This document shows, piece after piece, positions 3,285 through 60,081 of a DNA stretch of 64,000 nucleotides; position 1 is the first letter of the stretch; the number at the start of each line of letters is the position of its first letter. The DNA comes from Candidatus Heimdallarchaeota archaeon (GTDB lineage Archaea > Asgardarchaeota > Heimdallarchaeia > Hodarchaeales > Hodarchaeaceae). The stretch is from NCBI GenBank assembly GCA_048881705.1, contig JBHLSH010000006.1, positions 13,233-77,232 of the forward strand, given 5' to 3'. The translations under genes and the position numbers were made by a program. Below the pieces are notes generated by a model. The model ran no database searches and had not been told where the DNA came from. It saw nothing but the letters and a program-made list of their open reading frames with translations.

Positions 3285-4244
3285 TTATATCTCCGGTATT
3301 AAAGGGACCGTTCTAGCGTACCTGGATACATCGTAATAATATCTGATCTTCTGTATCGCATCAATATGGACTCCAGTCTCCTTATGGATTTCTTCCAGGG
3401 AATAGCTTCCGACCTCTAATCTTAATAAGACGCGATCAACTTCCCTATGTGATAGATCAAAGAAAAATTTATAACTCGTTGGTATCTCCTCTACTCTTTC
3501 ATCAAGATATTTCTTCAGGTTAAGATATTTTGCCAATTGAACCACCTGTGTTTTATAAAGCGCAGCTAAAGGTAGGAAATCGGCCGCATGATAGGTTCCG
3601 AATTTCGTAAAGAGCCCTAAGAGCCATTCTGTTTTATTGACATGACCAATATAAGATTTATTTTCTATTTCAGCCAGAAGGAACGACAGAAGCATATTCA
3701 GACGTATCCGGCTTTTATAGTGGGCTATTGACTGACGAATAAACTTCTCCCTTTTGGTCCTTGGCCGTTTTGAAGGAGGGCTGAAGGTTTCCAACTCAAA
3801 ATCATCGCGGGCCATGCTTTTAAACAATATATAGCTTAAATTATAATTCAATATCGGGGAGCTGTCAGTAACTGAACGAGCTACCATCTTTCCGGTTTTT
3901 TCTGAGTAAACCCTGCCAATATCCCGAATCAGATTCTCTATATTGATGAAAACAAGACTTTCGTTTGGTAGATCAAGATGCTGTTTTATCAACTCTGTGT
4001 CCCTCTCCCTAGTTGGTTTTCTGCTACTGAATCTCCCTTGAGTTACGATCAAACTGACATTTTCTGCCCCCACGGCTGCGCATGCCAATTTAACGTTAAC
4101 AAGAGACTCAACCTCGTCTCTAAAAAGCAGGACTAGGCCTTCGATGTCTCTTTTTTCCAAGAAAGAACGTAGGAATTCCACAATTTTCTCTTCAACAGAA
4201 CTTGGGTCGATTTGTAACCTTTCATCCAAAACCATTTCGCTCAT
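3285..4244 (-). CDS. NadE-like paralog with an eroded PP-loop, probably non-catalytic
   Basis: Core 'NKTEWLLGLFTKFGTYHAADFLPLAALYKTQVVQLAKYL' and C-terminus '...RTVPLIPEI' parallel ORF 2194..3117 ('...RGVPLIIE'). The SGGxDS position reads 'LLFRDEVES'. Confidence 0.5.
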   Translation of the reverse strand: MSEMVLDERLQIDPSSVEEKIVEFLRSFLEKRDIEGLVLLFRDEVESLVNVKLACAAVGAENVSLIVTQGRFSSRKPTRERDTELIKQHLDLPNESLVFINIENLIRDIGRVYSEKTGKMVARSVTDSSPILNYNLSYILFKSMARDDFELETFSPPSKRPRTKREKFIRQSIAHYKSRIRLNMLLSFLLAEIENKSYIGHVNKTEWLLGLFTKFGTYHAADFLPLAALYKTQVVQLAKYLNLKKYLDERVEEIPTSYKFFFDLSHREVDRVLLRLEVGSYSLEEIHKETGVHIDAIQKIRYYYDVSRYARTVPLIPEI

Positions 4245-6654: not shown

Positions 6655-7989
6655 TTATTCCTTCGTTTTCCGTTTAGCAATCAAAATTCCTATGCTTAAC
6701 AAGAAACCCAGGCCCGAAAAACTACTAGCACGTGGAGATGTTGTCGATGTGTTTTTAAACCATCTGACCTTGATTAACCAAAAGTCAGCACCACCGGCTC
6801 CATACGAAAAGGTTGAACCAGCAATCACAAACTCGTTATTCGCTGTCTGGATAAATGAATTTGCGCTTTCGCTCAAGGCTCCACCGAGAGTGAAGTTCCA
6901 TTGGGGTTGGCCATTATTATCCGTTCTAACCATCCAGACATCAAAACTCCCAGCACCGAATGAAGACGTTCGTCCAGCTAGAATAAAACCGCCATCATCC
7001 GTTTGGATTCCCGACGAAGCTAAATCCGCGTCTACCCCCCCAATGGTGTTGTTCCATTCCTGTTGCCCACTCGCGTCTGTCTTTAACAAAATAGCATCAC
7101 CTAAGCCAGCACCGTATGAATCCGATTCTCCAACCAGGACATAACCTCCATCAGCTGCCTGGATAACTGAAAGAGATCTATCAAAGCTCGTACCTCCGAA
7201 GTCTTTATCCCATTCAACCTCTCCGTTGGCATTGGTTTTCACTAACCACATATTATCAGGTTTGATCCCCGCATCTGAAGAGCGGAGTACTCCTACCAAG
7301 GCAAATCCCCCATCAGCTGTTTGAATTAATGAGATTCCAGTATCTGCCGCTCCTCCTCCGAATGTTTTGTCCCATTCAATCACTCCACTGGCATTGGTCT
7401 TCACTAGCCACATATCATCTGACCCTGCGCCTGAGGAGCGAGTGGTTCCAACCAAAGCAAGCCCCCCATCCGCTGTTTGGATCACTGAATTAGCGAAATC
7501 ATCCTCCGTTCCACCATATGTCTTATTCCACTCATGTTTACCATTGGTATCCGTTTTTACCATCCAAACATCCAAGCCGCCCGCGCCAAACGAGTTAGTT
7601 CTACCTGCAATGAGAAACCCACCATCAGTCGTTTGAACTACTGAGCCAGCTCTTTCGTCATCGACACCTCCAAATGTCTTATTCCATTCCGACTGACCGA
7701 TGGCATTGGTTTTTATCAACCATAAATCATCAAAACCTAAACCATACGATTCAGTGAGCCCTACAAGGACGAATCCCCCGTCGTTAGTCTTAATAAGGCT
7801 TGGTGGATAAAGGAAGCCTGATCCTGCTCCATCATCAGCTATGCCACCATAAGTGCGATTCCATACCGTTTCAATCGAAATTGATATGTTGGCCCTTGTC
7901 CTTTCTATGTCAAATCTTTCTACTGACACAACACTGATCGGAGTAAAAATCAGGATCACAAATAAAGTCAAAATGAATTTTTCACCCAT
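6655..7989 (-). CDS. Secreted 7-repeat (propeller-like) surface protein with a Ser/Thr linker and a C-terminal TM anchor
   Basis: The ORF track extends to 8031, but the ATG at 7989 (MGEKFILTLFVILIF...) has GGTGA 5 nt upstream and begins a signal-like helix. There are seven units of roughly 50 aa: 'WNKT.GG...D.A.SVIQT.DGGF.L.G.T.S.GAG..D.WLVKT...G'. The tail is 'TSTTSPRASSFSGLGFLLSIGILIAKRKTKE'. Confidence 0.75.
   Translation of the reverse strand: MGEKFILTLFVILIFTPISVVSVERFDIERTRANISISIETVWNRTYGGIADDGAGSGFLYPPSLIKTNDGGFVLVGLTESYGLGFDDLWLIKTNAIGQSEWNKTFGGVDDERAGSVVQTTDGGFLIAGRTNSFGAGGLDVWMVKTDTNGKHEWNKTYGGTEDDFANSVIQTADGGLALVGTTRSSGAGSDDMWLVKTNASGVIEWDKTFGGGAADTGISLIQTADGGFALVGVLRSSDAGIKPDNMWLVKTNANGEVEWDKDFGGTSFDRSLSVIQAADGGYVLVGESDSYGAGLGDAILLKTDASGQQEWNNTIGGVDADLASSGIQTDDGGFILAGRTSSFGAGSFDVWMVRTDNNGQPQWNFTLGGALSESANSFIQTANNEFVIAGSTFSYGAGGADFWLIKVRWFKNTSTTSPRASSFSGLGFLLSIGILIAKRKTKE
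6760..7870 (-). repeat. Array of seven tandem coding repeats (about 48-55 aa each) inside gene 6655..7989
   Basis: Repeat units were read directly from the translation. Boundaries are approximate. Confidence 0.7.
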
Positions 7990-16946: not shown

Positions 16947-18251
16947 ATGAATTATGAGTCACAATTTATTAAAGAGACAAAAGATAGAATCAAGAATCTT
17001 CAAAGGCAAGGTCAACCCAACAAAATTCCTTCCATGGTTTCGGAGTTCTGGAATACTGTACAATCATCAGATTATCCAATTATTGAAAGATTGGAAGATG
17101 CAAACATCGCCAACAACAATACAGAATATAATTTCGTCACGTTTTTATATCGTACCAGTAAAAATGTTGATAATGTATTCTTGTTGGCCGAATTCAACTT
17201 CATTGATCCAAAAGATTATTTATTTGAACATATTGATGGAACTGACATTTTTTATAAAACATTCTTGCTTCCAAAAGGTGCACAAGCGGAGTATAGGATC
17301 TTTGAAAATGATCCGCTTGATGGTATCTTTGCAGGAGCTAAATATCAAAACCGTTTGGAGAGGTTTCACGAACACCCAGATAAATTAAGTAGACATATTC
17401 GACGGATTCCTAATGGGTATCTGGGAAAAAAAGACCTTTTTATTGCCAGTTTACGTCCTTTTCCCCCAGAAATCTCCAATTTTGTGAATAATAAGAATCA
17501 GCAGAAGGGCGAAATTTCGACATATGAGCAGGAGAGCGATATCCTTGGATGTTCCAGAAAAATAAGTCTCTATACTCCAGCTGATTATAACGCCGAAGCA
17601 GCCTACAAGTTCATATTCATACATGATGGAAGTGCTGCTTTGAGCTATGGCGAAACACACACCCTAATTGATTATCTAATTGCTTCAAAAGCCATCTCTC
17701 CCGTTGTTGGAATTTTTACCGATCCTGGAGTAAAAAATGGGAATACAACGCGAAATGAGGAATATCCATGTAATCCTCACTATGCACGCTCAATTGTTCA
17801 GGAAATACTTCCTTGGGTTCGGGAAAACGTTAGCATTAGCAGCGATCCGAACGATGGGATTATCGCGGGTTCTAGTTACGGCGGATTAGCCTCCTTCTAT
17901 TACAGTTTCATGTACCCCGAAAGCATTGCCAATGTTCTATCTCTATCAGGTTCCTTCCATTGGGGAAGGCCAGATGAAGATTATCCTTATGAGTGGCTCC
18001 CCCGAAAGATTGCCTTCTCCGAGAAGAAAGCAATAAAGGCATATTTGGAGGTAGGGAAGCTCGAGGGAGAATATCATTGGAATAGCCCTGGATTTCCAAA
18101 TCAGATCGTCAGTCATAGACACTTCGTAACTATTTTGAGGATGAAAGGGTATTCATACGAATATAATGAATACAACGGTGATCACAGCCCTACTTCCTGG
18201 ATAAAACCCCTAGAAAGGGGATTACGGTATTTTTTGGGTAAAAGAACTTGA
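16947..18251 (+). CDS. Esterase D / enterochelin-esterase-like serine hydrolase
   Basis: 'FIFIHDG', nucleophile 'IAGSSYGGLASFY' and C-terminal 'GDHS'. AAGGAG lies 12 nt upstream of the ATG. Confidence 0.7.
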   Translation: MNYESQFIKETKDRIKNLQRQGQPNKIPSMVSEFWNTVQSSDYPIIERLEDANIANNNTEYNFVTFLYRTSKNVDNVFLLAEFNFIDPKDYLFEHIDGTDIFYKTFLLPKGAQAEYRIFENDPLDGIFAGAKYQNRLERFHEHPDKLSRHIRRIPNGYLGKKDLFIASLRPFPPEISNFVNNKNQQKGEISTYEQESDILGCSRKISLYTPADYNAEAAYKFIFIHDGSAALSYGETHTLIDYLIASKAISPVVGIFTDPGVKNGNTTRNEEYPCNPHYARSIVQEILPWVRENVSISSDPNDGIIAGSSYGGLASFYYSFMYPESIANVLSLSGSFHWGRPDEDYPYEWLPRKIAFSEKKAIKAYLEVGKLEGEYHWNSPGFPNQIVSHRHFVTILRMKGYSYEYNEYNGDHSPTSWIKPLERGLRYFLGKRT

Positions 18252-18528
18252 GGATTGCCCTTTCCAAAGAAATCTCCATCAAATAATTCGAAATTGCCTG
18301 ATTGCAGTATCAGGTTGGTCCTAGACGGAGGTTATCCTGAGGAACTGGTGAATATGCATAGAATCGTGGAATGAATAGTAAACTCTCTCCAAAATCATTC
18401 TATATGGAAATCATCCAATATTACAGAGTCAGAATACAGAGTTCGTAGATAGAACGAAAAAAACGATAACCGATATAATTACCTATATATGCAGTTATAG
18501 ATACCGCGGATGTTCGAGATGAATTCGC

Positions 18529-18882
18529 TTGCTGGATGATCTCCTCCTATCAAAATGGCAAACCGAGTACAAGAAAGGGTTTTCTAAACCTCTCATCCTT
18601 TTCACGCTCGCCAAAATAGGAAGTAGTTATGCCTATCTTCTCACAAAGAAGATTATGGAGTTAACAAATGGAGAGATATCGATAGCAGGTTCGAATATTT
18701 ATCCTATGCTAGCAAAACTAGAAGAAGACCGATTGATAATCAGTCAAAAAGACGAAAATGATAGAAAATACTACGAGCTGAGTGAAACTGGTAGGGATTT
18801 TTTGGAACAGTTAGAACTCTCGATTAAAGAATTTAATGAGATAATGCTAGGATTAACCAAGAAAGATGAAGGAGAGCTCTAA
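18529..18882 (+). CDS. PadR family winged-helix transcriptional regulator
   Basis: 'PLILFTLAKIGSSYAYLLTKKIMELTNGEISIAGSNIYPMLAKLEEDRLIISQ...RKYYELSETG'. Uses a TTG start. Confidence 0.8.
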   Translation: MLDDLLLSKWQTEYKKGFSKPLILFTLAKIGSSYAYLLTKKIMELTNGEISIAGSNIYPMLAKLEEDRLIISQKDENDRKYYELSETGRDFLEQLELSIKEFNEIMLGLTKKDEGEL

Positions 18883-19558
18883 AGTAATGTCCCGATCGAA
18901 GGCTTTGGATCCTATTGACGGTTATCTACGAGAGGTAAGTGCCTTGCTTCCCTACCCTGAGGAAAGAAAAGCTCCCATCCTTGGAGAATTAAAAAAGGAT
19001 GTAGAAGATGCGATGGGCGCTGAAAAACGTCCTCCTTCTGTCGTTTTTGGATCCCCAGTCGAAGTAGCTAAGAATCTGAGTATCGCGAATGATTGGGGAA
19101 CAAAACCTGCTGGATGGGGAACACGTCTGATCGCTTCATTCATTGATTACGTGGCGACCCTAGGAGTCTTCATTCTGTTCGCTATCATTCAACTTATCCT
19201 ATCGGACTTTCAAATCGATGAAATAAGATGGAATTCAATGCACATTCCTTTTGGTTTGCTTTTTATAGGTATTCCAATTATGGGGTTACTTTTGAGTTAT
19301 TTTATTATTCTTGAAAAGACCTATTCCACAACCCTTGGGAAGAGAATATTGGGTCTTATAGTTGTAGACGAGTCAGGGATTAATATAACTTGGACCCAGT
19401 CTTTGATTCGCAACTTTACAAAAGTTCCTTTTCTGACCTCATTTTTGCCATTCGATATTATTTTTGGGATTGTATCGGAAAAAACACGCGGTAGGAAGCA
19501 GAGAGTTTTGGATTTTGTCGCAGGGACCAAAGTAATGCAGCAAAAAAAACGGATGTAA
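18866..19558 (+). CDS. PadR-associated membrane protein: DUF1700-like N-terminal helical region plus an RDD-family membrane domain
   Basis: 'IDGYLREVSALLPYPEERKAPILGELKKDVEDAM' followed by 'RLIASFIDYVATLG...' and 3 TM helices. It overlaps the PadR stop codon. An alternative ATG lies at 18887. Confidence 0.6.
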   Translation: MKESSKVMSRSKALDPIDGYLREVSALLPYPEERKAPILGELKKDVEDAMGAEKRPPSVVFGSPVEVAKNLSIANDWGTKPAGWGTRLIASFIDYVATLGVFILFAIIQLILSDFQIDEIRWNSMHIPFGLLFIGIPIMGLLLSYFIILEKTYSTTLGKRILGLIVVDESGINITWTQSLIRNFTKVPFLTSFLPFDIIFGIVSEKTRGRKQRVLDFVAGTKVMQQKKRM

Positions 19559-19568
19559 GGGTGCTTTT

Positions 19569-22500
19569 ATGGGATTAAGATCGAGTTTACTTATAGCTAA
19601 AAGAGCATTAACACGTAGAAAAGCCAAGAATATCAGTGCCATCCTTGCCATTACGTTAGGCGTAACGTTGATGGTTGGAATTCAGATAACAACGGATACG
19701 TTGGAGAACTCCTTTCTAACCGGTTTACTTCTTGATGAAGGCGAAGTGGACATTCGAGTTGGAAATGCAACGGGGAATTATCTAGCTATTGAAGTTCAGG
19801 ATAACATCTCTGAGCTAGTTCCAGACGGAAAAATAATGCCTGAGCTGACATCACGAGGTCCTGTAATGGCGGGTTCTCAGTTTGAAGACTCCGTTCAATT
19901 TGCAGGGATTCCCTCCCAATATCCAGAGATCTTTGGTGACTTTTATGATTGGTTTACTCAAGAAAAAATGAATATTAGTGATTATTTAACTGATAATAAA
20001 AGCGTTTTGTTGTCAAGCAACTTGGCCGAGGATTTGGATATAGAAAAAGACAGTCAATTACCAATAACCTTGGTTACAGAGTTTAATAACCAATCCATCA
20101 TTCTTCTACCAAATGGGACTGGTCCCCCCATTCCAACCCCGATTTTTACTGTCGAACAGGTTAATCTCTCTGTTGTAGGTTTATATGACTCCAATAGACC
20201 AGGGATTGGAGCGCAATATACTGGTCTTTTGATGTCCCTAAAGGGCCTTCAAGATTGGCTGAGTCTTCAGGATTTTTCTCGAAACTCAAATTTGGTTAGT
20301 TCCTATTTGATATCCTTTCAATCTGATCACTTTAATACCCGTATTGACCCTGATTTCCTACAGGAGAAGCTAGATTTTTTAAATGAAACTCTACCTGTCG
20401 GCCTTGTTAATGGAGAAACTCAACAGTTATTCGCGGCATCGTCTCCCCGTTTACTGTTTACGGAAATTATTGATCTTGTCTTCAGCTTCATGTCTACCTT
20501 TTTAAATGTTCTAGGTCTGTTGATAGTACTCACGGGAGTATTACTTATAACAAATGTTCAACTAATGAGTGTTGAAGACCGAGAGTTCCAAACTGGCGTA
20601 TTACGAGCTGTAGGGGAAAAAAGAAGAGGGATTTTTGTTTCTATGCTCTCTGAAACTCTTTTTCAAGGTGTTATCGGGGGGATAATTGGATTGGGTGGAG
20701 GACTAATTTTTGGTCAAGTCGTCGCACTCTATATCGCCAGTCTTTTTGAGACAGGCCAGTTTAGCGTCCGACCAGTCATAAATCAAACCATTATCATTTT
20801 CTCCGTCCTTATTGGCGTTGCCCTCGGTATTCTTACAGGCCTTCTCCCAGCATTACGAGCTTCACGTGTGAATGTGGTAGAAGCCCTTCGCGGCATTAAA
20901 ATTCAATTCGAGGAAAAATCTGGTAGAAACCTAGTATTATTAAGCGTGTTGCTGGTAATCGGTGGAACACTCATTCTCTTAACAAATGGAGTTTTTGATG
21001 ATAGTCTACAATACATTTGGGAAATTGAAGGATGGGACTCATTGGACGAATGGAGGAATATCCTCCTTGGATCGGCAATTCTCTTTTCTGGCCTTGGTAT
21101 CATTCTATCTAGCTTTATAGACCGGATCAAGGCCCTTAATTTGACAGCACTCGTCATCTGGGCAGCGCCAGTTTTTCTGTTTGTCGTGGCAATGGGAGAA
21201 GGGTGGATCTCTGAATTTTCAGGTGGTCCATTTAATATCGATGTTTTTATCATTGCAATAATAGAGGTTGTAGTTGGATCGGTGTTAATTGTTGGTCTTA
21301 ATTTGTCTCCCCTGATGAGATTCCTACGTAGAGCACTTATGCGAATAAGAGGTGTTAAAGGAGTGGCTCAAGTTGCACCAGCTCTAATCTCATCGCATAA
21401 GACACGTTCAACTCTAACCTTTGCAATCTTTGCAGTAGTTCTCACTCTGAATGTTGTAGTCGCAGCGCTTGTAGCAACTAACCTTTCTAGCTCGATAGGC
21501 CAGGCCGAGACAGACTCTCGCGGTATAGATTTATTTGTCTCACTTAACAAGCCTGAAGTGGTATTAAACGATACCTCCTATACAAAACTATTATTTAACG
21601 TATCCGATAGTATAACTGACGTCATAGGGATGAAAACATTCCACAGCAGGACGGATTTCACCAAATATATCGCCCTAAAAAAACCCGGCTCTGAGGGATA
21701 CAATCCATCGACAGACCATCTTCCGCTCAAATTTGTAGAACTACGGTCAGAGCAAATCAGAGGCAATGCCACTAGCGCTGGAGATGAAAACTGGAGATAT
21801 GATAGCTTTTTAGGGAGTTTTCCTGATGGCGTCGGTGAACTTTCTTCCTCCTCTGGAGGTTTCTTCGGTCCTGGCTTTGGTGGTCAATCTGATGATTTGG
21901 AAGCATTGGAACTCTCAAAAAAAGCATTTGATGCTTTCTTCAATTCCTCCTATACCATGGCTGCATATAATGTGTCGTTCTCATTGTCCTCCCTAAGCGA
22001 TTTTGACATTGAAGACTTTTCATCTTTTTTTGAATCGGATTTGGAAGATGTAGAAAAATTAGAGAATGAGAACGGGTCATTAATTAAAAATCCTATCGTT
22101 TTTACCGATTCTCTAATCCTCCCACTTGGAATGCAGATCTTTGTGCCTATGAATATGACATTTAGTCCCTCGGCTAATAGAACAGAAATTGTTTATCAAC
22201 CGTTCACAATTGGTGGGAAGTTTGACCGAGAACGAACTGTCGGATTTGCTCTCTCGGGTGGTGGCTTTTCTACCAGAGCTATCGGAGAAGAGAGTGATCA
22301 ATCAAACTTTCTGGGGAGAATCTATATTCCTGAGCGGTTTTCAAAATATACGAATTTTTTTGGTGAAGCTGGAGGAGCTTCCTACTCTTCAAGAAAACTG
22401 AATCAATTTGACACCTTTCTAATTAAAACCTCCTATGCGTTTGATGATCCAAGGATAGAAGAACTTGCTATCAAGATCGAGAATTTCACAAATACAGAAG

Positions 22501-22985
22501 AAGCCGGATATAGAAAATTAGCTAATGATGACTTTCTGGTTGCAACCACTACCTCATTGTATTCCGAGGTAGAAGCAAGCTTGGAATCGACCGTACAGAT
22601 GACATCATTCCTAACAATCTACGTTAATTTCGGATTAATTATCGGTGCTGTGGGAATGGCCGTGATTAGCGTTAGAAATGTTTCTGAAAGAAAACGAGAA
22701 ATAGGGATGATGCGCGCAATAGGATTCCCAAGATTTCAGGTTATGTTAGCTGCCCTCTTGGAGCTATTGGTGTTAGGATTTATTGGTTTAATCATTGGTG
22801 TTGTCAACGGGCTTTTGATTAACGTCGGCTTTGCTAATATGATGGAAGTGCCGATAGTTATCCCATGGGACACATTAGCAGCCTATCTTTCTTTAATTAC
22901 CCTTATAGGATTGCTTGCAGGAGCTATACCTGGATTCATTGCTTCCAGAATACCTGCCGCGGAGGCCTTGAGATATGTTGGATAA
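19569..22985 (+). CDS. FtsX/MacB-type (type VII) ABC transporter permease with two FtsX modules and two large extracytoplasmic domains
   Basis: Two FtsX signatures: 'VEDREFQTGVLRAVGEKRRGIF' and 'SERKREIGMMRAIGFPRFQV'. Each is followed by 3 TM helices and preceded by a soluble loop of 270-360 aa. Confidence 0.85.
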   Translation: MGLRSSLLIAKRALTRRKAKNISAILAITLGVTLMVGIQITTDTLENSFLTGLLLDEGEVDIRVGNATGNYLAIEVQDNISELVPDGKIMPELTSRGPVMAGSQFEDSVQFAGIPSQYPEIFGDFYDWFTQEKMNISDYLTDNKSVLLSSNLAEDLDIEKDSQLPITLVTEFNNQSIILLPNGTGPPIPTPIFTVEQVNLSVVGLYDSNRPGIGAQYTGLLMSLKGLQDWLSLQDFSRNSNLVSSYLISFQSDHFNTRIDPDFLQEKLDFLNETLPVGLVNGETQQLFAASSPRLLFTEIIDLVFSFMSTFLNVLGLLIVLTGVLLITNVQLMSVEDREFQTGVLRAVGEKRRGIFVSMLSETLFQGVIGGIIGLGGGLIFGQVVALYIASLFETGQFSVRPVINQTIIIFSVLIGVALGILTGLLPALRASRVNVVEALRGIKIQFEEKSGRNLVLLSVLLVIGGTLILLTNGVFDDSLQYIWEIEGWDSLDEWRNILLGSAILFSGLGIILSSFIDRIKALNLTALVIWAAPVFLFVVAMGEGWISEFSGGPFNIDVFIIAIIEVVVGSVLIVGLNLSPLMRFLRRALMRIRGVKGVAQVAPALISSHKTRSTLTFAIFAVVLTLNVVVAALVATNLSSSIGQAETDSRGIDLFVSLNKPEVVLNDTSYTKLLFNVSDSITDVIGMKTFHSRTDFTKYIALKKPGSEGYNPSTDHLPLKFVELRSEQIRGNATSAGDENWRYDSFLGSFPDGVGELSSSSGGFFGPGFGGQSDDLEALELSKKAFDAFFNSSYTMAAYNVSFSLSSLSDFDIEDFSSFFESDLEDVEKLENENGSLIKNPIVFTDSLILPLGMQIFVPMNMTFSPSANRTEIVYQPFTIGGKFDRERTVGFALSGGGFSTRAIGEESDQSNFLGRIYIPERFSKYTNFFGEAGGASYSSRKLNQFDTFLIKTSYAFDDPRIEELAIKIENFTNTEEAGYRKLANDDFLVATTTSLYSEVEASLESTVQMTSFLTIYVNFGLIIGAVGMAVISVRNVSERKREIGMMRAIGFPRFQVMLAALLELLVLGFIGLIIGVVNGLLINVGFANMMEVPIVIPWDTLAAYLSLITLIGLLAGAIPGFIASRIPAAEALRYVG

Positions 22986-22998
22986 TGGAGGTAAAAGA

Positions 22999-23742
22999 AT
23001 GTTAGAAACGATCGCAGAAGATCCAGATTTTGTTGAGGCAGAACCAATCCTCTATATCACCGATTTGCATAAACGTTATAACGAGGGAAAATCGAATGAA
23101 GTACATGCTCTTCGTGGATTAGACCTGGAGGTAAAAAAAGGGGATATGATGGCAATTATGGGACCTTCCGGGTGCGGAAAAACAACCCTACTCAACATGA
23201 TCGGACATTTGGATGTTAGTTCGGGAGGAACAATTGTAATCAGTGGCATTGATACCGGAGAGCTTTCCGATCGGGAGATGACTGCCTTTCGAAGAGACAA
23301 CATCGGTTTCATATTTCAGCTCTTCAATTTGTTTCCGTTTTTGACAGCGGTAGAGAACGTAGAAACTCCCCTATTATTAAAGGGCCTTAAATCAGGAGTT
23401 GCAAGAGAACAGGCCAAAATGCTTTTGAGAGACCTAGGAATGGGAGATCGACTATATCATTATCCCTTAGAGCTTTCAGGTGGCCAACAACAACGAGTTG
23501 CAATCGCGCGTGCTTTGATTAATCAGCCTGCGATTATTCTGGGTGACGAACCGACGGGAGATCTGGACAGTACCACAAGTGCAGTGATAATGGAACTCTT
23601 TCGTAGAATAAATACGATGAATAAACAGACATTTGTTCTGGTTACGCACAACAGGTGGATTGCCGAAAAATGCGATTACATCGTCCATATGACCGATGGG
23701 GTAATTTCCAATGTTGAGTATGGCCCGTTTCAGGAGGACTAG
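22999..23742 (+). CDS. ABC transporter ATP-binding protein (MacB/LolD/FtsE-like)
   Basis: Walker A 'GPSGCGKTT', signature 'LSGGQQQRVAIARAL', Walker B 'ILGDEPTGDLD', H-loop 'VTHN'. The ATG at 22999 has GGAGG 7 nt upstream. The ORF track start at 22975 overlaps the permease stop. Confidence 0.9.
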   Translation: MLETIAEDPDFVEAEPILYITDLHKRYNEGKSNEVHALRGLDLEVKKGDMMAIMGPSGCGKTTLLNMIGHLDVSSGGTIVISGIDTGELSDREMTAFRRDNIGFIFQLFNLFPFLTAVENVETPLLLKGLKSGVAREQAKMLLRDLGMGDRLYHYPLELSGGQQQRVAIARALINQPAIILGDEPTGDLDSTTSAVIMELFRRINTMNKQTFVLVTHNRWIAEKCDYIVHMTDGVISNVEYGPFQED

Positions 23743-23744
23743 CA

Positions 23745-26528
23745 GTGGTAAGAGTATACACCGCAGCCTTAATAGATAAACCTCTACGCTCTATAAATAA
23801 GAATTTACAGAAAAAAATTACTTCTGATTTGAGAAAATCTCTAAAAGTTCGGGGTGATGCAGTAACTGGCCAGGAATTGAACACATTCCTCCTAGTTTCC
23901 GGCAGAAACGGAAAGAAGGGATTTACTCCGGAAATGATAGACAAGGTTGAAAAGGGAACCATTCAGAAAAGACTTAAACAGTATTACACCAGAAATGAGT
24001 CACGTTTTAGGAACCATATGAAGAATAATCAAGAGTTATATGAAACCTCGCAGGTAGTAAAGGAATTCATCCGGGAGATTGATTCGTCGCTTCCCAGAAA
24101 GTTTGACCAACATTTAAAGAAAATTAACACGGATTTACCGGAAATTTTCTGCCAAGTTAGCATGAAGAGCTTTATTACATTATGGGAGATTGAGGAGAAA
24201 GAAGAATATCGTTTTAACCTATCTGGATTTGATTTTCCCATATTTACTGGAAAAACCAATGGAACCTCATTCGATATAGGTGGGTTGGTAGATAAACTTC
24301 TCATCGTAAATTTCTTTGAGACTTTCTTAAATTCAACTCTCCAGCGATTGGATGAGATGAACCACGTTCTTGAACGCCTTGAGTACGAACTTGCCAAGCC
24401 ACACTATCTGATTAAGAACGAAAAACTGCATGCCAAATTTTCCCTCTTTCTACGAATTCTGGTTGCGAAACTAAGCGCCCTACAAGAGCTAGAAAACTCG
24501 ATCTTTCGTATCTTTAGTCTGTTTGACATACCGTACATGATTCTTCTTCAGTATCATTTCAAGAGCGATTTTCTAGATTTAAATAACGAAATTGCCAGGA
24601 TTTGTGAGGAGATAAATACAGGGAAAAATAAACTCAATGAGGTTGGGGAGCGAATTGATCGTTGTCAATTATCCCTCCGAGATTATCTTGATGATGGTAT
24701 TAATGGAGTAACTGTAACCAATTCTTTTCAAGTTTTCAAAGATGCCTTGAAACCACTGGCCGATTTAAGTATCGATTTATTTATAGAATCTGAGATGTTA
24801 AAACTTTGGTCGGATTATTTCGGCTCGGATATTCCTTATTTCAGTTTTAATGTGCAATTAGACGAGGATACCGACACCGAGGAGGCTATTGAGATTGAAG
24901 ATGATGTCATTTTAGCTGTTAGAGGGCTTTATAAGAACTATAACCTTGGTCGTACTACCGTTTATGCAGTGAGGGGAGTAAATCTCGATATTAAGGCTGG
25001 TGAGTTTGTCGCAATCGTTGGCAGTTCAGGCGCAGGCAAGACAACACTATTAAACTGTATGGCCAGTTTAGATACTCCTGATCATGGTGCCGTTTATTTT
25101 CGAGGGAAAGACTTACACCATATGAAAGATTCGGAGAAAGCAGAAGTTAGACTTCACGAAATGGGCTTTATCTTCCAGAGCTACGCTTTATTACCTCATT
25201 TTGACACTCGTGAAAATGTAACCCTTCCAGCAAATCTGGCAGGCGGACTAAGCAAAACTATCAGAACTCGAATTGAGAATCTGTTGGTTGGAGTAGGGAT
25301 AAGCGAACAGGCAAAGCAATATCCTGCCCAATTGAGTGGAGGACAGATGCAACGGGTGGCAATTGCACGAGCTCTTACTAATCAACCTACTATCATATTT
25401 GCTGATGAGCCCACGGGTGATTTGGATTCAGTAACTGGGATTCAAGTGATGGAATTGTTAAAGAAATTCCATGAGGAAACAAGGACGACGATTGTGATCA
25501 TCACACATGAGGAAAGCATTGCTGGTTATGCGGAGCGGCAGATTATGATGGAAGATGGAATAATTACACAGCGAAAACGGCCCGTTGATCAAGCTGGGCA
25601 GTCCATCCTGATGGAAAAGCCGCCAATCATTAAAACTGAGGCCGAACTACCTCCAATTTCGAACGAAAGAGTAAGCAGAATCGAAGAGAGGTTGGGGATG
25701 ATTGAGAAGAAAAATATAGAACTATTGGGTAAGGTAGTGAAAGAGGTTCAAAAACAGTTAGATGAGGTAAGAGGCAAAATAGAAGTTCTTGGGGTCGAAA
25801 CCAATAAAAAGCTGCTGGATCTGAGTACAAGATTTGAACAATTAAACACCAACGCCAGTAATTGGTCCTTTGCAATCAATGAGCAGATGGAATCATTTCG
25901 TGCTCAATACGTTCAAGCGCTGGAAGAGCTCCGGCAATCTACAATCAGATCAGCCGAAAAGGAAACCATTCTTTCTCAAAAGTATACAGAGCTTGTCGGG
26001 CAACTAAGAGAAAAAGAACGTATGGCAATCGAAAAAGGTAATTTAAATAAAATAAGGCTCAGTGCATTACAAAAGGAGATACAAAGGAAGGAATCAGACC
26101 TAGGGATCTATAAGGATAGATTAGAAGAGCTGGAGTCTGAAATAAAGGTAAAACAACAGCATATTGATGAATCCGCTGAAATCAAAATGAAGACCGAAAA
26201 CCTTGTAAACAACTACAGAAAGCTAAAGGAAGCTTATGATGATAAGAGTAGGGAAGTGACTCAATTACAAGCTCAACTAGCAGCCGTGACTGAAGATACC
26301 CAGAAGATCGTCAAAAGCACCAATGCAATAAAGGCATTCCTCGATGAGAGTGATTCAGGTCGAATTCTGTATCAGCTGCTTAATTCTGAACGTATGACTC
26401 TGGATGAACTAGCGGCTCGGACAGAAATCGCAACATATACTGTTTACCAAATTGTTCAACATTTTCGTGAAATTGGTGTTGCTCAATACGATAATTCTAC
26501 TCGTATAGTAACCTTGGTAAATAGATAG
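23745..26528 (+). CDS. Atypical 927-aa fusion: unknown helical N-terminal domain, ABC ATPase, long coiled coil, C-terminal winged-helix
   Basis: GTG start with GGAGG 8 nt upstream. Walker A 'GSSGAGKTT', 'LSGGQMQRVAIARAL', 'IIFADEPTGDLD' and 'ITHE' at about nt 24909-25575. Heptad-rich E/K/Q/L segment at about 25660-26350. The tail is 'RMTLDELAARTEIATYTVYQIVQHFREIGVAQYD'. Confidence 0.8.
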   Translation: MVRVYTAALIDKPLRSINKNLQKKITSDLRKSLKVRGDAVTGQELNTFLLVSGRNGKKGFTPEMIDKVEKGTIQKRLKQYYTRNESRFRNHMKNNQELYETSQVVKEFIREIDSSLPRKFDQHLKKINTDLPEIFCQVSMKSFITLWEIEEKEEYRFNLSGFDFPIFTGKTNGTSFDIGGLVDKLLIVNFFETFLNSTLQRLDEMNHVLERLEYELAKPHYLIKNEKLHAKFSLFLRILVAKLSALQELENSIFRIFSLFDIPYMILLQYHFKSDFLDLNNEIARICEEINTGKNKLNEVGERIDRCQLSLRDYLDDGINGVTVTNSFQVFKDALKPLADLSIDLFIESEMLKLWSDYFGSDIPYFSFNVQLDEDTDTEEAIEIEDDVILAVRGLYKNYNLGRTTVYAVRGVNLDIKAGEFVAIVGSSGAGKTTLLNCMASLDTPDHGAVYFRGKDLHHMKDSEKAEVRLHEMGFIFQSYALLPHFDTRENVTLPANLAGGLSKTIRTRIENLLVGVGISEQAKQYPAQLSGGQMQRVAIARALTNQPTIIFADEPTGDLDSVTGIQVMELLKKFHEETRTTIVIITHEESIAGYAERQIMMEDGIITQRKRPVDQAGQSILMEKPPIIKTEAELPPISNERVSRIEERLGMIEKKNIELLGKVVKEVQKQLDEVRGKIEVLGVETNKKLLDLSTRFEQLNTNASNWSFAINEQMESFRAQYVQALEELRQSTIRSAEKETILSQKYTELVGQLREKERMAIEKGNLNKIRLSALQKEIQRKESDLGIYKDRLEELESEIKVKQQHIDESAEIKMKTENLVNNYRKLKEAYDDKSREVTQLQAQLAAVTEDTQKIVKSTNAIKAFLDESDSGRILYQLLNSERMTLDELAARTEIATYTVYQIVQHFREIGVAQYDNSTRIVTLVNR

Positions 26529-26895
26529 TTCTCATAAGAGATAAGTTACTTATAATACGATTATCAATCACGTTTCTTCTCCCCACACTCCAATGTTATT
26601 TCAGGTAGCCAATACAATGAGCTTCGCGTTGTCCGTTTCAATCGATTACTAGCGATCTTCTTCGTCTTCCAGGTGTCAAACTTATTTGGTGTTGTCCTCA
26701 GAGTGAGATTCCTGTTCAATCGGGATTGTTCTTCAAGTTAAGCTTCCTTGACTGATTTCTTTTCGTACTTTATTGCTCCTTTCGATATTAATCACGAGCT
26801 AGCTTAATATCCAGTAGGAATCTTTGGGGAAATGCCTATTTAATTATAGATCTTTTTGATCCGCTTGAATCCAGAGTTTTATCGGTGGTTAAAGC

Positions 26896-27714
26896 ATGTC
26901 ATCATCAGAAAACAATCTTGGAAGTTATTATTATGTAGAATTTCCCATCAATCGACAGATCCTTAGTGACCTGTATGATGAATTTCTTAGGAAACATTAT
27001 TCCATAGGTTACCTGGAAGTAAGTGTTTCCAAAGCTAAAGAATTGATTAGCAAATTTGCAGTGAAGACTGGGGAAAGAATTTCCTTCACCGGCTGGATTG
27101 TGAAGTGCATCAGTGATGCTGTCCTTCAGTTTCCAGAGTTTAATTCGTATCGAAAGGGCAGAAACAAACTTGTAACGTTTGAAGACATTGATATTATCGT
27201 AATGGTGGAGCGTCAGGTACATGATAAACTTATTCCAGTTCCTTATTCGATTCGAAAGACCACAAAGAAAGATTTGTTGACTATTTCCAGGGAAATAAGA
27301 ACAGCACAAAACATGGAAGTAACTGAGGAAAATCAGCTTCTTGACCAGGGAATCCTCACCAAACTATACCCGTTTATTCCAGGAATTATTAGACGACGCC
27401 TGATTAGACGTATTCTTCGAAATCCTTTTTCTATTAAGAAACAAGGAGGGCTAATTGTAGTTACTTCGGTCGGTATGTTTACCAATACTCGGGGGTGGGT
27501 AGGCGGGTTCGGCGGGATAACGACGCTCAATTTTGCAATTGGTGGAATCACTCAAAAACTCGTTAAATCTGGCGGTTCTATCAAAGAAGAACAATATTTG
27601 CAGATTACATTATCTCTCGACCACGATATTATTGATGGGGGTCCGGCTGCTCGTTTCTCAGCTTATTTAGTGAATTTATTTGAAAATGCAAGTGGTTTGA
27701 ATGGATTAGTTTAG
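26896..27714 (+). CDS. Stand-alone 2-oxoacid dehydrogenase acyltransferase (E2) catalytic-domain protein
   Basis: Catalytic motif 'SLDHDIIDGGPAARF' (DHRxxDG type) at the C-terminus. No lipoyl or E3-binding domain. GGTGG lies 7 nt upstream of the ATG. Confidence 0.75.
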   Translation: MSSSENNLGSYYYVEFPINRQILSDLYDEFLRKHYSIGYLEVSVSKAKELISKFAVKTGERISFTGWIVKCISDAVLQFPEFNSYRKGRNKLVTFEDIDIIVMVERQVHDKLIPVPYSIRKTTKKDLLTISREIRTAQNMEVTEENQLLDQGILTKLYPFIPGIIRRRLIRRILRNPFSIKKQGGLIVVTSVGMFTNTRGWVGGFGGITTLNFAIGGITQKLVKSGGSIKEEQYLQITLSLDHDIIDGGPAARFSAYLVNLFENASGLNGLV

Positions 27715-27951
27715 CATCAAATTCTATGCCCTCTTCGACCTATCTTTATCTGTTGGCAATAGCCCAAATACCTGATTTTAGAAAAGGAATTTCCGAATTT
27801 AAACCTAAAACGCCTTCTTTTTAGATTCATCTAACTTTAAATTCAAGAAAAATTGTCATTGGATTCACCTTAATTAGATATATCAAATTAGATACCGTAA
27901 TACTGATATAACAATAAGGAAACTGCTGAATAGGCAAAAAGAGATGACACC

Positions 27952-28317
27952 ATGGTTGAAGTAGAAATAACGCTTAGTTTTTTATGGGTCTCCATAATGT
28001 TTTGTTATTTATATGGGGATGTGTTTTCCATACTGGCTGGGGATTTTAAACCAGGTGAAATAGATGGAAAACCATTAAGCGAGTACATGGTTCTAGGAAT
28101 GGCCATGATAATGACAATTCCAATAACTATGATCGTCCTAACCTTAGTATTGGATTACTCAATCAGTCGTTGGGCAAACATTCTCGTTTCTCTGGGCTAT
28201 ATCATTTTCAATGTGTTATCCCTTCGGAATTATCCAAGCTATGAAAAATTTACTCTGCTGGTATCCATGGTATTTAATGTAACAGTAGTCTATCTTGCAT
28301 TCACTTGGGCAATCTAA
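27952..28317 (+). CDS. Small 4-TM membrane protein (DUF6326-like). Paralog of 40014..40379.
   Basis: 121 aa. Shares 'LYGDVFSILAGDFKPGEIDGKPLS' and the overall helix layout with ORF 40014..40379. Confidence 0.55.
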   Translation: MVEVEITLSFLWVSIMFCYLYGDVFSILAGDFKPGEIDGKPLSEYMVLGMAMIMTIPITMIVLTLVLDYSISRWANILVSLGYIIFNVLSLRNYPSYEKFTLLVSMVFNVTVVYLAFTWAI

Positions 28318-28322
28318 GGATT

Positions 28323-28994
28323 TTAGAAGAATTCAGATAATGTTGTTTTGGGGCTTTTCTTTTTTGCGGGTTTTATTGTAGCCGGCCCGTTATCCCCCTT
28401 ACTCGGTAGTGTATCAACAATCCAACTATTCATCTCTCCCTCATACGGTTTAAGGATCGCTAATAACTCTTCTTGAGTTTTCTCATAATCGAGCCAAAAA
28501 TCGACTAGTTTTTTATCAAAAATGACTGGCATTCTATGAAAAACCTTTTCAACAACGGGATGAGGTTCAGTTGTTAAAACTGCACACTTATACCTCATCC
28601 TGGTCTCCTCTTCATCAAAATAAGAATTATAAATACCAGCAATTCCGAATAATGGCTCATTTTTTAAGGAAAAGTAATATGGGATTCTTTCTTTACCCAC
28701 TCGCTCCCATTCAAAAAAACCGTTTGCAAGAATAACACAACGTTTTTCCACAAAGGCTTTCCTAAAAAGCTTTTTTTCATGAACCGTTTCACTTCGGGCT
28801 TTATATGATTGAAAACCTTTTGTATAACCCCAATACATTCGAACTAGTTTGTATCCTTCTTCATTTACAATTGCAGTTGCTCTGTTTGTTGGTTTAAGAT
28901 TGTAATAAGGAAAAATCTCAAGGTTCCCTGGAGAAACGCCAAATGTTGATTCAATTTCATCTTTTGACGCAAAAAAGGCAAATCTGGAAGGCAT
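28323..28994 (-). CDS. SOS-response-associated peptidase (SRAP; YedK/HMCES family) lacking the N-terminal catalytic Cys
   Basis: 'YYNLKPT', 'MYWGY', 'KARSETV', 'NGFFEWE' and 'HRMPVIF' are collinear with YedK. The N-terminus is MPSRF rather than MCGRF. Confidence 0.8.
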   Translation of the reverse strand: MPSRFAFFASKDEIESTFGVSPGNLEIFPYYNLKPTNRATAIVNEEGYKLVRMYWGYTKGFQSYKARSETVHEKKLFRKAFVEKRCVILANGFFEWERVGKERIPYYFSLKNEPLFGIAGIYNSYFDEEETRMRYKCAVLTTEPHPVVEKVFHRMPVIFDKKLVDFWLDYEKTQEELLAILKPYEGEMNSWIVDTLPSKGDNGPATIKPAKKKSPKTTLSEFF

Positions 28995-50661: not shown

Positions 50662-50678
50662 GCGTCGTACCACCGTTA

Positions 50679-53600
50679 TCACCATACTCCCTGTTTTTCT
50701 CGAACATGGAACTGGGCTTTCAGGCCCTCAATAGATACCAAAAGCCCAATCAACGGGAATATAACATCGTAGAAAGAAATCCACAAAAAAACTGACCTTT
50801 GATGTTCACTGAAGGGAATGATGAGTTCCTCATAGGATGAATAGGGATTATTAGCCCGTAAGACGACTACTTCGTTCTCATTTCCATGTAGAAAATGTAC
50901 CCAGCCATCTGCAGTTCCAACAGCCACATCGATAATCCCATCATTATTAAAATCTCCCATTGCCATACTACGGATTAGATAGGTTGGGATATAAGATACC
51001 CATTGAACTTCGCCAGAGGTGCCATCGAGAGCATAAATATTATCATGATTGAGAGCCAAAACATCAAGGGTTCCGTCATTATTCATATCTGAAATACGAT
51101 ATTCCTCTAGATAGAAGATAGAATGATCCTGGAATTCCCACCAGACCATGATGGTACCATTTGAAGTCATCGTCAGCGCATAATGCCTATCGCCAAATGA
51201 GCGTATAACAAGATCATCGTATCCATCACCCGTCAGATCGGCTGTGATCAGGTGGGAAAACCGGAAGGTCACATTTTCATGGAATGAACGGGTTGCGTTG
51301 ATATAATCCGCAGCAGTATTCGACCAATCTGTGCTATGGTAGGTAATAACTGTACCATTCCTAACAATAACTGCGATTTCCGGCAAAGGATTTGCTGTAA
51401 AGTCACCAACCGCGAAATCTTGAACCTTGGTCCAAAAACGGTTGAAAGGTGCAACTACACCAGAATCAACAGCTTTGTAGAACCATATCGCTTTTTCATG
51501 AATCGAAACTGCAATGTCCATAAGTCCGGTTCCTAAGAAGTCCGCAAACTGTATTTTGGTGAAAGGTCCAACAGGATTAATGGATTCCCAGATGATAGTC
51601 CCTTTTAATGTTACGGGATGTAGAGTCGTATTGTAGACAAGAATCCGTCCCTTAAACGGGTTAAACCAATACCCCATGCTTATGACTAGCTCCTCGGTGG
51701 TTCCATCATTATTTAAATCTGCGAACTTCATATCGTTAACGATTACCGGTCCGAGGTGATCCTTCCAGATGGGGAGGCCTGTTTCACCATTTATAGCGTA
51801 TATACGACCATTGAGGAGAACGACTATAACATCCGTATAACCATCCTGCATGAAAAAGTCATGGGTCACAAGATGTGTAATTGGAAGAGTCGTGCGATAT
51901 TTCCAAATTAAGTCCCCAGTTCGGCCATCTAGGGCAATTACATATCCCTGTGTATCGCCATAGACGATGTCATCTACTCCGTCCTTTGAGAAATCTCCAA
52001 CAGCCATATCAACCACGATCCCACGAGTCTTGAACGCCAGGGTATTGTTCTTCTGAATGGCCATTGACCGATAGCGTGTGGGCTCGTTGCGTACCCAGGT
52101 ACCCATTGCGACTCCATTGGCATTTTCTATTATACCCAACTCACCAAATTCACCAAAATTACCCGCTGCAACTGACATGATGCTTCCTTCATGTTCTACG
52201 AATAATAATGGTGTACCGTAACTACCATCAACCGCGGTCAAGGCGCCTGTATGCTTGAAACCTGGTTGATACTCGGTTAGGAACACAAAGTCATCAGGTT
52301 CACCATCTCGATCGATGTCAGCTTGTTTTATTTCGTTCGCATGAGTATCATGCATGAAATACTCCCAAAGAACGTCATTTATGGCCAAACCGCTTATCGT
52401 AACCAATTTGGTTGTTGGTCCACTCCCTATGAATGAGAAGTCATCCATACAGTACCAACTTTCCCAACCAGGCTGGCCTGGGGTTCCTGAAACTCTTACT
52501 TTATAAATCCGTCCCTTTGGATCATTTAATTCCACATAGGTGTTTGGTGTATTGCTGGGGAATGTGGTCAGCGTTAAAAGTTTACCATCCTCATCATATG
52601 CAAGCAACGTAAAGTTAAAACCGTAACCTATGCCCGTTGAGAACCACGCGGATACTTTTCGAGCTTTTTCCTTAATGATAATTGAATTATTGGCCTCTCC
52701 CGAGTACGCCACGATGTTCCCTGAATGTGCAACACGGAATCCAGCGGCCGAATAGGTATTCCAGCCATCAGTAATTATCGATGGGGATGTTTCGGAAAAT
52801 ATCAGTCCAAGGGAGTTATTTCTAATTCTCCCCAATGGAATCGATTCAAAAGTCTCAGTATGGTTGCCACCGTTTGTACGAATCTGAAACATTACGTCCA
52901 TGTATGTGTCTTGGTTGAAATCATATAGAATGGCGTCTTTATAATTTCCTATAGCTTCCGAGAATGTGTAATTTCCTAGAGCGACTGAGAAGTTGTTTCC
53001 GTTATAAACCGTGAGTGTACCCTCTTCAAGAATCAGGATGTCTGATGTATTATCTTGATTAACGTCTAGAATGGTACTAGTAAGGCCAAAACGTGAATGA
53101 GTAGTATTAAATTGATATAAAGGAGTACCATCGTACGAAAAAATGGCAACGGTACCATTCTGTGTGATAAGGCCACTCTGCATTTTTCGCGCCACGATGG
53201 CAAGGGTGTTATTCCCGCTAGCAATGTGTTCGGCTTTCCAAGAAGAATCGGGGAATGAAACATTGCTCCATATTGACGTGGCACCCGTTGATGGATTGGC
53301 TAGAAAGACTTGATGCTGGTTTGGTACCAGAATATCAGAGACGTTATTTGAATCTAAATCGACGAGATAAAGGCCTGTGTAATTATTCTGGTCAAATCCA
53401 GACAATATCATATCCGCCCGAATTTCAGTGCCTGTAGCACCATTGAGAACAAACAAACTCGAATCTCCCTGGGTATCATCATATATCAGAAAGATTGCGT
53501 CCTTAACCTCGTCACCATCCATATCCAGCGATTCCAGCGAAAGGATCCATGAGTTTTTGGAAACATAGCTTGAAAGATTATAGGTCCAGAGAATGGCACC

Positions 53601-60080: not shown

Positions 60081-60081
60081 T

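Follow-up and report, generated by a model that had tools for sequence, protein, structure and literature searches.

The window analysed here is a 64,000-nucleotide (nt) stretch of contig JBHLSH010000006.1 (positions 13,233 to 77,232, forward strand; assembly GCA_048881705.1) from a Candidatus Heimdallarchaeota archaeon. At nt 23745-26528 of its plus strand lies a gene whose 927-amino acid (aa) product joins, in this order, a 385-aa N-terminal domain (N-domain), the nucleotide-binding domain (NBD) of an ATP-binding cassette (ABC) ATPase of the MacB/LolD type, a proline-rich linker of ~27 aa, a single helix of 229 residues and a C-terminal winged helix. We find that this layout is a genuine, selected and clade-restricted fusion, and that the protein carrying it provides a type VII (MacB/FtsX-type, putatively YbbAP-like) ABC machine, conserved among archaea, with its second and specialised ATPase subunit. 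The anatomy proposed in an initial annotation made from the nucleotide letters alone (N-terminal domain, ABC ATPase, coiled coil and winged helix-turn-helix, wHTH) was borne out in every part by domain scans and AlphaFold models.

An uninterrupted fusion in five species

The gene is a single open reading frame (ORF) of 927 codons with a GTG start and no internal stop codon. Its fusion junction (nt 25581-25661) is reproduced with zero differences in Logan contigs of two public sequencing runs (X1, 6.3 kb; X2, 5.7 kb), and a 228-nt unitig from a third run of another sample (X3) covers nt 25473-25700, again with no difference. The C-terminal module (C-module, that is, stalk plus winged helix), used as a query against GTDB species genomes, retrieved 22 loci, in four of which a single, one-frame tblastn high-scoring segment pair spans aa 1-927. 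The corresponding fused ORFs are 927 aa (L008, 86.5% identity), 940 aa (L009, 74.3%), 930 aa (L029, on the closed chromosome CP070760.1, 74.7%) and 904 aa (L010, 71.7%) long. Counting the window, five species were found to possess an uninterrupted fused ORF, and the insertions and deletions among them come only in multiples of a codon. A called protein of 904 aa (P0157) is 73% identical to the window protein and aligned over residues 1-925; its gene follows a plain ABC gene on its contig. The start codons differ: the GTG of the window ORF (VVRVYTAAL) lies two bases past the stop of the upstream ABC gene, whereas all four fused orthologues start with ATG (MVKVYT or MVRVYT).

The ratio of nonsynonymous to synonymous substitution rates (dN/dS) was measured against L008, where dS is unsaturated (0.6-0.9). 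It amounts to 0.09 for the N-domain, 0.07 for the NBD, 0.095 for the stalk and 0.12 for the winged helix, while the linker reaches 0.41. The low values of the stalk and the winged helix show that the appended module is maintained by purifying selection.

Two public records could nevertheless be taken to mean that two adjacent genes had been joined by a sequencing or assembly error or by a chimeric join. The closest entry found first (P0001, in L003) is a 624-aa 'partial' ABC gene, followed, past a run of 23 Ns (4093-4115), by a separate, start-less gene of 310 aa; and in the closed chromosome (L007/L029; CP070760.1, 501363-523363) the fused gene is annotated as 666 aa only (P0305). However, L009, which is 99.5% identical to L003, has 18 in-frame nucleotides at the site of the N run, and the 666-aa call is a late start within a frame that stays open for 930 codons. 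In L003 the scaffold gap coincides exactly with the linker of the fusion, where there is a short CCAGAG..CCAGAG repeat, and it accounts for both the 'partial' ABC gene and its start-less neighbour. The initial annotation had itself raised the prospect of an artefact, and neither a stop nor a frameshift separates the domains in the public contigs or in the ORFs of the five species. Mis-assembly or read-through is ruled out by the exact reproduction of the junction in three public runs, the in-frame orthologues of five species and the filling of the L003 N run by L009, and we consider an artefact extremely improbable.

The N-domain and the ATPase domain

The NBD (aa 386-612; nt 24900-25580, plus strand) was identified through Pfam and NCBIfam matches and through motifs read directly. 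Pfam ABC_tran (PF00005) matches aa 410-557, in one stretch only (E 3.9e-33; 115 bits against a cut-off of 25), and the best NCBIfam models on aa 386-616 are LolD, MacB, YbbA, DevA and FtsE (E 1e-55 to 1e-63). The Walker A (GSSGAGKT), signature (LSGGQ), Walker B with its glutamate (IIFADE) and H-loop (ITHE) motifs are all intact, and the motif stretches LSGGQMQRVAIARAL and IIFADEPTGDLD place the domain within the ABC family. Pfam, NCBIfam and motifs therefore agree with the initial description of the central ~225 aa as a canonical transporter-type ABC ATPase (MacB/LolD-like). Every one of the NCBIfam equivalog cut-offs was missed (LolD 214 vs 307.75, MacB 206 vs 966, YbbA 197 vs 336, FtsE 186 vs 265), so that the protein is not LolD, MacB, YbbA or FtsE; judged by its sequence, the NBD is of the LolD/MacB/YbbA type and stands outside any named equivalog. 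The 927-aa protein is cytoplasmic, a Kyte-Doolittle scan having found no transmembrane segment in it.

The N-domain (aa 1-385; nt 23745-24899, plus strand) emerges from the AlphaFold model and the homologue search as a conserved alpha/beta domain. The model (predicted local distance difference test, pLDDT, 90.4; predicted template modelling score, pTM, 0.86) contains ~8 strands plus long helices. No sequence match to aa 1-385 was obtained in Pfam, NCBIfam, PADLOC or a PDB sequence profile search, and Foldseek against PDB and BFVD returned nothing at E<=1e-3. The best fold matches (E 0.04 and 0.016) have template modelling scores around 0.2 or below, and those to CorA-like folds and to de novo helical bundles were regarded as noise. 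Of the initial characterisation of these ~385 aa as helical and devoid of a recognised motif, the second half stands, and the first needs correcting, the domain not being purely helical.

When used as a query, the N-domain retrieved at least 249 database clusters at E<=1e-3, nearly all of them proteins of 604-625 aa that consist of an N-domain and an NBD (E down to 5e-193; 96-100% coverage of the N-domain). Their hosts belong to the Hod-, Heimdall-, Thor- and Odinarchaeota and to the Bathyarchaeia, and more distant N-domain paralogues (31-36% identity) were found in Hodarchaeota and Kariarchaeaceae. Members of this ~608-aa family, such as P0002, P0011 and P0074, all three deposited as 'ABC transporter ATP-binding protein', align end to end with window aa 1-612 at 46-77% identity and occur in the same operon. 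Unlike the window protein, however, they end a few residues past the NBD, whereas the window protein runs 315 aa further; together with its four orthologues, it extends ~300 aa past the usual family end. Judging from these homologues, the N-domain+ABC part represents an old, widespread and as yet unnamed archaeal family, and the 385-aa N-domain is a candidate new domain family.

These results divide the initial claim that no transporter ATPase with this layout was known to have been described. For the N-domain+ABC part the claim was overstated, this part being instead a large, conserved family of ~608 aa that is already common in archaea. For the fusion it was fair: the fused architecture is absent from the curated families of Pfam and NCBIfam, and no description of it was found in the literature searched.

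A conserved type VII ABC operon

The fused gene is the last of an operon (nt 18529-26528, plus strand) that opens with a PadR-family winged-helix regulator of 117 aa (nt 18529-18882; Pfam PadR, E 4.4e-14), a first position that is kept in L004 and L005. It is followed by an RDD-family small membrane protein of 230 aa with two hydrophobic segments (nt 18866-19558; Pfam RDD, E 1e-17), which is 76% identical in the Asgard locus L004 and absent from the Bathyarchaeial locus L005. The third gene (nt 19569-22985) codes for a duplicated FtsX/MacB-type permease of 1138 aa (Pfam FtsX, E 1.5e-31, 109 bits over two stretches; MacB_PCD) whose NCBIfam match is the ADOP duplicated permease. A Kyte-Doolittle scan places its extracytoplasmic domains at ~aa 41-309 and 637-1016 and the linking transmembrane helices at ~454-636, and its orthologues in L004, L005 and L008 are 55-95% identical. 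Between the permease and the fused gene lies a plain ABC ATPase subunit of 255 aa (nt 22975-23742; ABC_tran, E 1.5e-32; LolD-type, E 1.1e-66), which has all motifs intact, shares 43% identity with the NBD of the fused protein and is its presumed NBD partner.

The order PadR-(RDD)-permease of ~1120-1138 aa with two FtsX modules-plain NBD of ~253 aa-N-domain NBD is conserved, as seen in L004 (Asgard), L005 (Bathyarchaeial) and L008. As expected of a type VII (MacB/FtsX) system, an FtsX-fold permease with a MacB-like extracytoplasmic domain adjoins the NBD; the genes are on the same strand and overlap or abut. A search for RNA runs with which to trace co-transcription returned none. The closed chromosome CP070760.1 presents a different picture: the permease part adjoining its fused gene is the C-terminal half only (aa 510-1138), and the RDD gene lies ~6 kb upstream, beyond pyrimidine-biosynthesis genes and others; the operon of this genome has apparently been rearranged or disrupted.

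The closest known relatives of the whole machine are YbbAP(-TesA), MacB, LolCDE and FtsEX (PMC12646458, PMC5985334), with which it shares an NBD of the LolD/MacB/YbbA type and a permease whose FtsX modules are combined with extracytoplasmic domains resembling those of MacB. Like YbbP, the permease is internally duplicated and has two extracytoplasmic domains. The E. coli YbbP is a pseudo-symmetric duplicated permease that associates with NBDs at a ratio of 2 NBD to 1 permease (PMC12646458), and by analogy we infer that one permease chain takes two NBDs here as well. The differences are no less evident: YbbA acts as a homodimer, whereas the window encodes two distinct NBD genes; the window permease, at 1138 aa, has more linking transmembrane helices; one of the two NBDs bears the 385-aa N-domain and a 315-aa C-terminal stalk and wHTH; and the host is an archaeon, without an outer membrane partner.

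An AT-rich palindrome (TATAATTACCTATATA / TATATATGCAGTTATA) is situated at nt 18474-18499, ~30 nt upstream of the PadR start. It probably belongs to the TATA/promoter region of the operon and is also a possible candidate operator; the operator search upstream of PadR yielded nothing beyond it.

Linker, stalk and winged helix

The fusion junction comprises the NBD tail and the proline-rich linker (aa 613-639; nt 25581-25661, plus strand), delimited by alignments and modelled with pLDDT <50. The ~608-aa family ends shortly before this segment, which is only 39% identical between genera.

Beyond the linker, the AlphaFold model for aa 616-927 (37 homologues, mean pLDDT 83.6) shows the stalk (aa 640-868; nt 25662-26348, plus strand) as one uninterrupted helix in the monomer (model residues 25-253, pLDDT up to 97). 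With 229 residues and not a single proline, it would measure ~34 nm if straight. In the heptad test, the hydrophobic periodicity at positions a and d is 0.41 vs 0.26 +/- 0.03 and exceeds that of 500 out of 500 shuffles, aa 699-768 being weakly heptad-like. The long heptad-rich segment noticed initially thereby takes the form of a continuous helix, a putative coiled coil. The middle of the stalk harbours a conserved motif that does not follow the heptads (NASNWSFAINEQ..FR..YV..LEELRQ), which across fused and free copies reads N(S/A)SNWSFAxNEQ..FR..YV..LEELRQ. The start of the stalk (nt 25662-25760) is variable, with an 11-residue insertion in L009, as in the free paralogues described below, and a deletion of ~37 residues in L010; the length of the stalk is therefore not fixed. 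A PDB profile search with the C-module returned generic coiled-coil noise only.

The C-terminal domain (aa 869-927 and the stop codon; nt 26349-26528, plus strand) is modelled with the H-beta-H-H-beta-beta fold of a wHTH (model residues H255-265, E268-270, H271-278, H282-295, E298-301 and E306-309; pLDDT 73-83). Foldseek against PDB retrieved the winged helices of MarR, IclR, ArsR, TrmBL2 and PF0095 (E ~4e-3, probability 1.00), with superpositions at a root-mean-square deviation of 1.7-2.7 A over 54-61 columns, and the PADLOC matches are to the Csa3/CARF3 wHTH. The window sequence itself stays below the Pfam gathering scores (TrmB 16.2 vs 25.6 bits; MarR_2 14 vs 27 bits); among the 37 members of the family, 35 match MarR_2 (E<=0.1, best 3e-07) and 28 match TrmB (best E 4.6e-06). 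Model, fold matches and the MarR_2 signal in the relatives all uphold the winged helix that had been read from the sequence.

A free-standing relative and the origin of the fusion

The C-terminal 312 aa, used as a query, retrieved 36 free-standing proteins of 302-362 aa (~333 aa; E down to 2.7e-80; P0121-P0156), all from Heimdallarchaeia-type genomes and some annotated as 'MarR family' or 'chromosome segregation ATPase'. These are 38-53% identical to window aa 640-927 in an alignment that takes in both the mid-stalk motif and the wHTH. They differ from the fused module in their own basic N-terminus (MFRKKKPSE...) and in the three arginines of their wing; the next gene downstream encodes a Macro domain, and no transporter adjoins. 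The Macro-domain gene lies 15-75 nt downstream on the same strand in 17 of the 17 genome loci (L011-L027; for example L012:5824-6825, with Macro at 6863-7402), and a gene for an M20 peptidase occurs upstream within the locus in 12 of them; a further example is L001:10001-11582. The free coiled-coil/wHTH gene and the Macro gene are a conserved, undescribed pair in Heimdallarchaeia. The window itself contains no second free copy and no M20 or Macro neighbours.

The fused C-modules are monophyletic in 100 out of 100 neighbour-joining bootstraps, with the free copy L011 of a fusion-bearing genome as their nearest neighbour, and the fusion therefore arose once. A free paralogue is kept in three fusion-bearing genomes (L011, L026 and L027). 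The fused copy begins at about residue 35-40 of the free protein, whose basic N-terminus is replaced by a 15-aa NBD tail (…RKRPVDQAGQSILME) and the variable proline-rich linker. The simplest history is a single duplication of the free gene, its insertion 3' of the ABC gene, and the loss of a stop codon and of the 5' end (~35 codons). Set beside the old N-domain+ABC family, the capture of the C-module is recent. Simple loss of a stop codon between genes that are normally adjacent is ruled out, the free gene being found elsewhere beside the Macro gene in every one of the 17 loci.

The fusion is shown to be restricted to one small clade of Heimdall-type Asgard archaea, with five species found. 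The public labels of the genomes concerned (L008, L009, L010, L029 and L003) are Thorarchaeota, Hodarchaeota, Heimdallarchaeota and Hermodarchaeota; given that the 927-aa protein is 72-87% and the permease 78-95% identical, some of these labels must be wrong.

Such a history might have left the two halves functionally independent, sharing a polypeptide after duplication and stop loss while each works as its unfused relatives do, so that the tether would carry no signal. The linker would be in keeping with this idea, as it is short, poorly conserved and relaxed in its dN/dS, and so would the confinement of the fusion to one small clade when hundreds of relatives work without it. Against such independence, the reading frame has survived ~25-30% divergence of the protein in five species, all indels being of whole codons, and the formation of a clade of its own with altered wing residues and the loss of ~35 N-terminal residues suggests adaptation to the fused state. 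We regard uncoupled modules as unlikely.

Possible roles of the tethered winged helix

We tentatively favour a role for the winged helix as a tethered or sequestered DNA-binding regulator whose availability would be set by the transporter. In such a mechanism, closing and opening of the NBD heterodimer with ATP would drive the permease by mechanotransmission, a process that has been reviewed for the MacB family (PMC5985334). The 229-residue helix would pair with a second stalk, either that of another transporter complex or that of the 40-50% identical free paralogue; pairing of some kind is probable because a single amphipathic helix of such length is not stable alone. The stalk pair could then hold two MarR/TrmB-like winged helices up to ~30 nm from the membrane, where each would constitute a membrane-tethered, transporter-associated binding module. 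The tethered regulator would act alongside the PadR repressor of the operon and would not replace it. The matches of the wHTH are to regulators of the DNA-binding type (MarR, IclR, ArsR, TrmBL2, Csa3), as expected for such a role. The proposal would retain, in a weaker form, the coupling of transport to transcription put forward in the initial annotation.

Several observations weigh against a tethered regulator. The operon already has a regulator in PadR. The net charge of the wHTH is -1 to -2 in the window and ranges from -5 to 0 in all 22 fused and free sequences, and the wing reads RIVTL in the window vs RRARL in the free paralogues, two of the three arginines having been lost in the fused copies. 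Helix 3 (GIATYTVxQIIQHFR) and the mid-stalk motif are nearly invariant across paralogues that are 40-50% identical overall, a pattern that could reflect conservation of a protein partner just as well as conservation of an operator. The invariable partner of the free family is the Macro-domain gene and not a transporter; occurrence in only five species implies that the fusion is dispensable for the ABC system; and a stalk of 229 residues would be expected in a scaffold protein sooner than in a simple repressor.

Much of this evidence could equally be explained if the stalk and the winged helix bound proteins and no DNA, the fusion serving to localise a complex at the transporter or to link two transporters. 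In that case proteins would dock on the mid-stalk motif and on the invariant helix 3, and the free paralogue may be the pairing partner of the stalk. Winged helices that bind proteins are known from kleisins, ESCRT-II and cullins. The acidic character of the wHTH throughout the fused and free sequences, the strong conservation of a non-heptad motif in mid-stalk, the unusual length of the helix for a repressor and the retention of free paralogues in fusion genomes are all consistent with a scaffold. It is harder to reconcile with the fact that every sequence or fold match of the wHTH is a DNA-binding regulator, and with the retention of at least one arginine or lysine in the wing of every copy. 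A scaffolding or recruitment role is, in our estimation, nearly as likely as the tethered regulator, if somewhat unlikely when taken by itself.

The tethered-regulator reading also admits a bolder version, in which a cell-envelope ABC machine would, through its activity, directly determine how far a winged-helix factor specific to Heimdallarchaeia occupies DNA, with no kinase involved. ATP-driven closing of the asymmetric NBD pair would be passed on via the stalk, or else the stalk would form a heterodimer with the free paralogue and keep it sequestered at the membrane; the far more widespread N-domain would be a new cytoplasmic regulatory domain of archaeal type VII ABC systems. This bolder version we consider quite unlikely.

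Comparison with other ABC ATPases

The cytoplasmic ATPase of a transporter is a point where transport status meets gene regulation in several known systems, such as MalK-MalT, the MetN C2 domain, ModC and BceAB-BceRS, and to these the window protein bears a conceptual likeness. There, what the NBD binds is a separate regulator or a domain for small molecules, or else it signals to a histidine kinase, whereas here the wHTH is covalently attached via a long stalk. The analogy to BceAB-BceRS flux sensing drawn at the outset holds in this conceptual sense only. The accompanying remark that no two-component system takes part proved correct: no histidine kinase or response regulator domain was detected in the operon or in the flanking genes scanned (nt 16947-28994), which rules out a Bce-type module.

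Uup (ABC-F) and SMC/Rad50 are comparable in that an ABC ATPase is joined to a coiled coil, which in them contacts nucleic acid. Uup has two tandem NBDs, no permease and a C-terminal DNA-binding coiled coil (ABC_tran_CTD), and in SMC/Rad50 an antiparallel coiled coil is inserted inside the ABC head. An ABC-F/Uup-like protein was ruled out by the single ABC_tran stretch, the lack of any ABC_tran_CTD (PF16326) match in the whole protein and the adjacent permease; an SMC/Rad50-like protein was ruled out by an NBD that is complete and contiguous (aa 386-612), with the helix coming after it. PADLOC matches to LmuB and JetC are weak and of a coiled-coil nature. A defence system of the Lamassu or Wadjet kind was likewise rejected, the PADLOC matches being weak, compositional or to generic ABC proteins, and the NBD being of the transporter type with an adjacent permease.

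Other large genes of the window

Elsewhere in the window, three very large genes that follow one another on the minus strand probably encode giant surface proteins: a 940-aa protein with a PPC domain (nt 47860-50685), a 3150-aa FG-GAP/beta-propeller repeat protein (nt 50679-60134) and a 1298-aa protein with a bacterial TSP3 repeat (nt 60082-63981).

Significance

Gene fusions act as 'Rosetta stones', exposing functional links between proteins that are separate elsewhere. Here the link is between two families, both uncharacterised and confined to particular lineages, in those archaea that stand nearest to the eukaryotes. The first is a widespread archaeal ABC machine of the MacB type, whose two ATPases differ and whose N-domain has no known structural relatives; the second is a winged-helix protein on a long stalk, which in its free form always has a Macro-domain gene as its partner. 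Public databases contain the parts of the fused protein, but only under names that are generic or wrong. Should the tether have no function, the gene model established here (927-940 aa) would still correct public records that are 'partial' or truncated, and the two families deserve names. If the tether does function, the protein would stand as a rare instance of a transporter ATPase with a DNA-binding-type module attached covalently, and would offer an experimental handle on both families by way of binding targets, partners and the effect of ATP.

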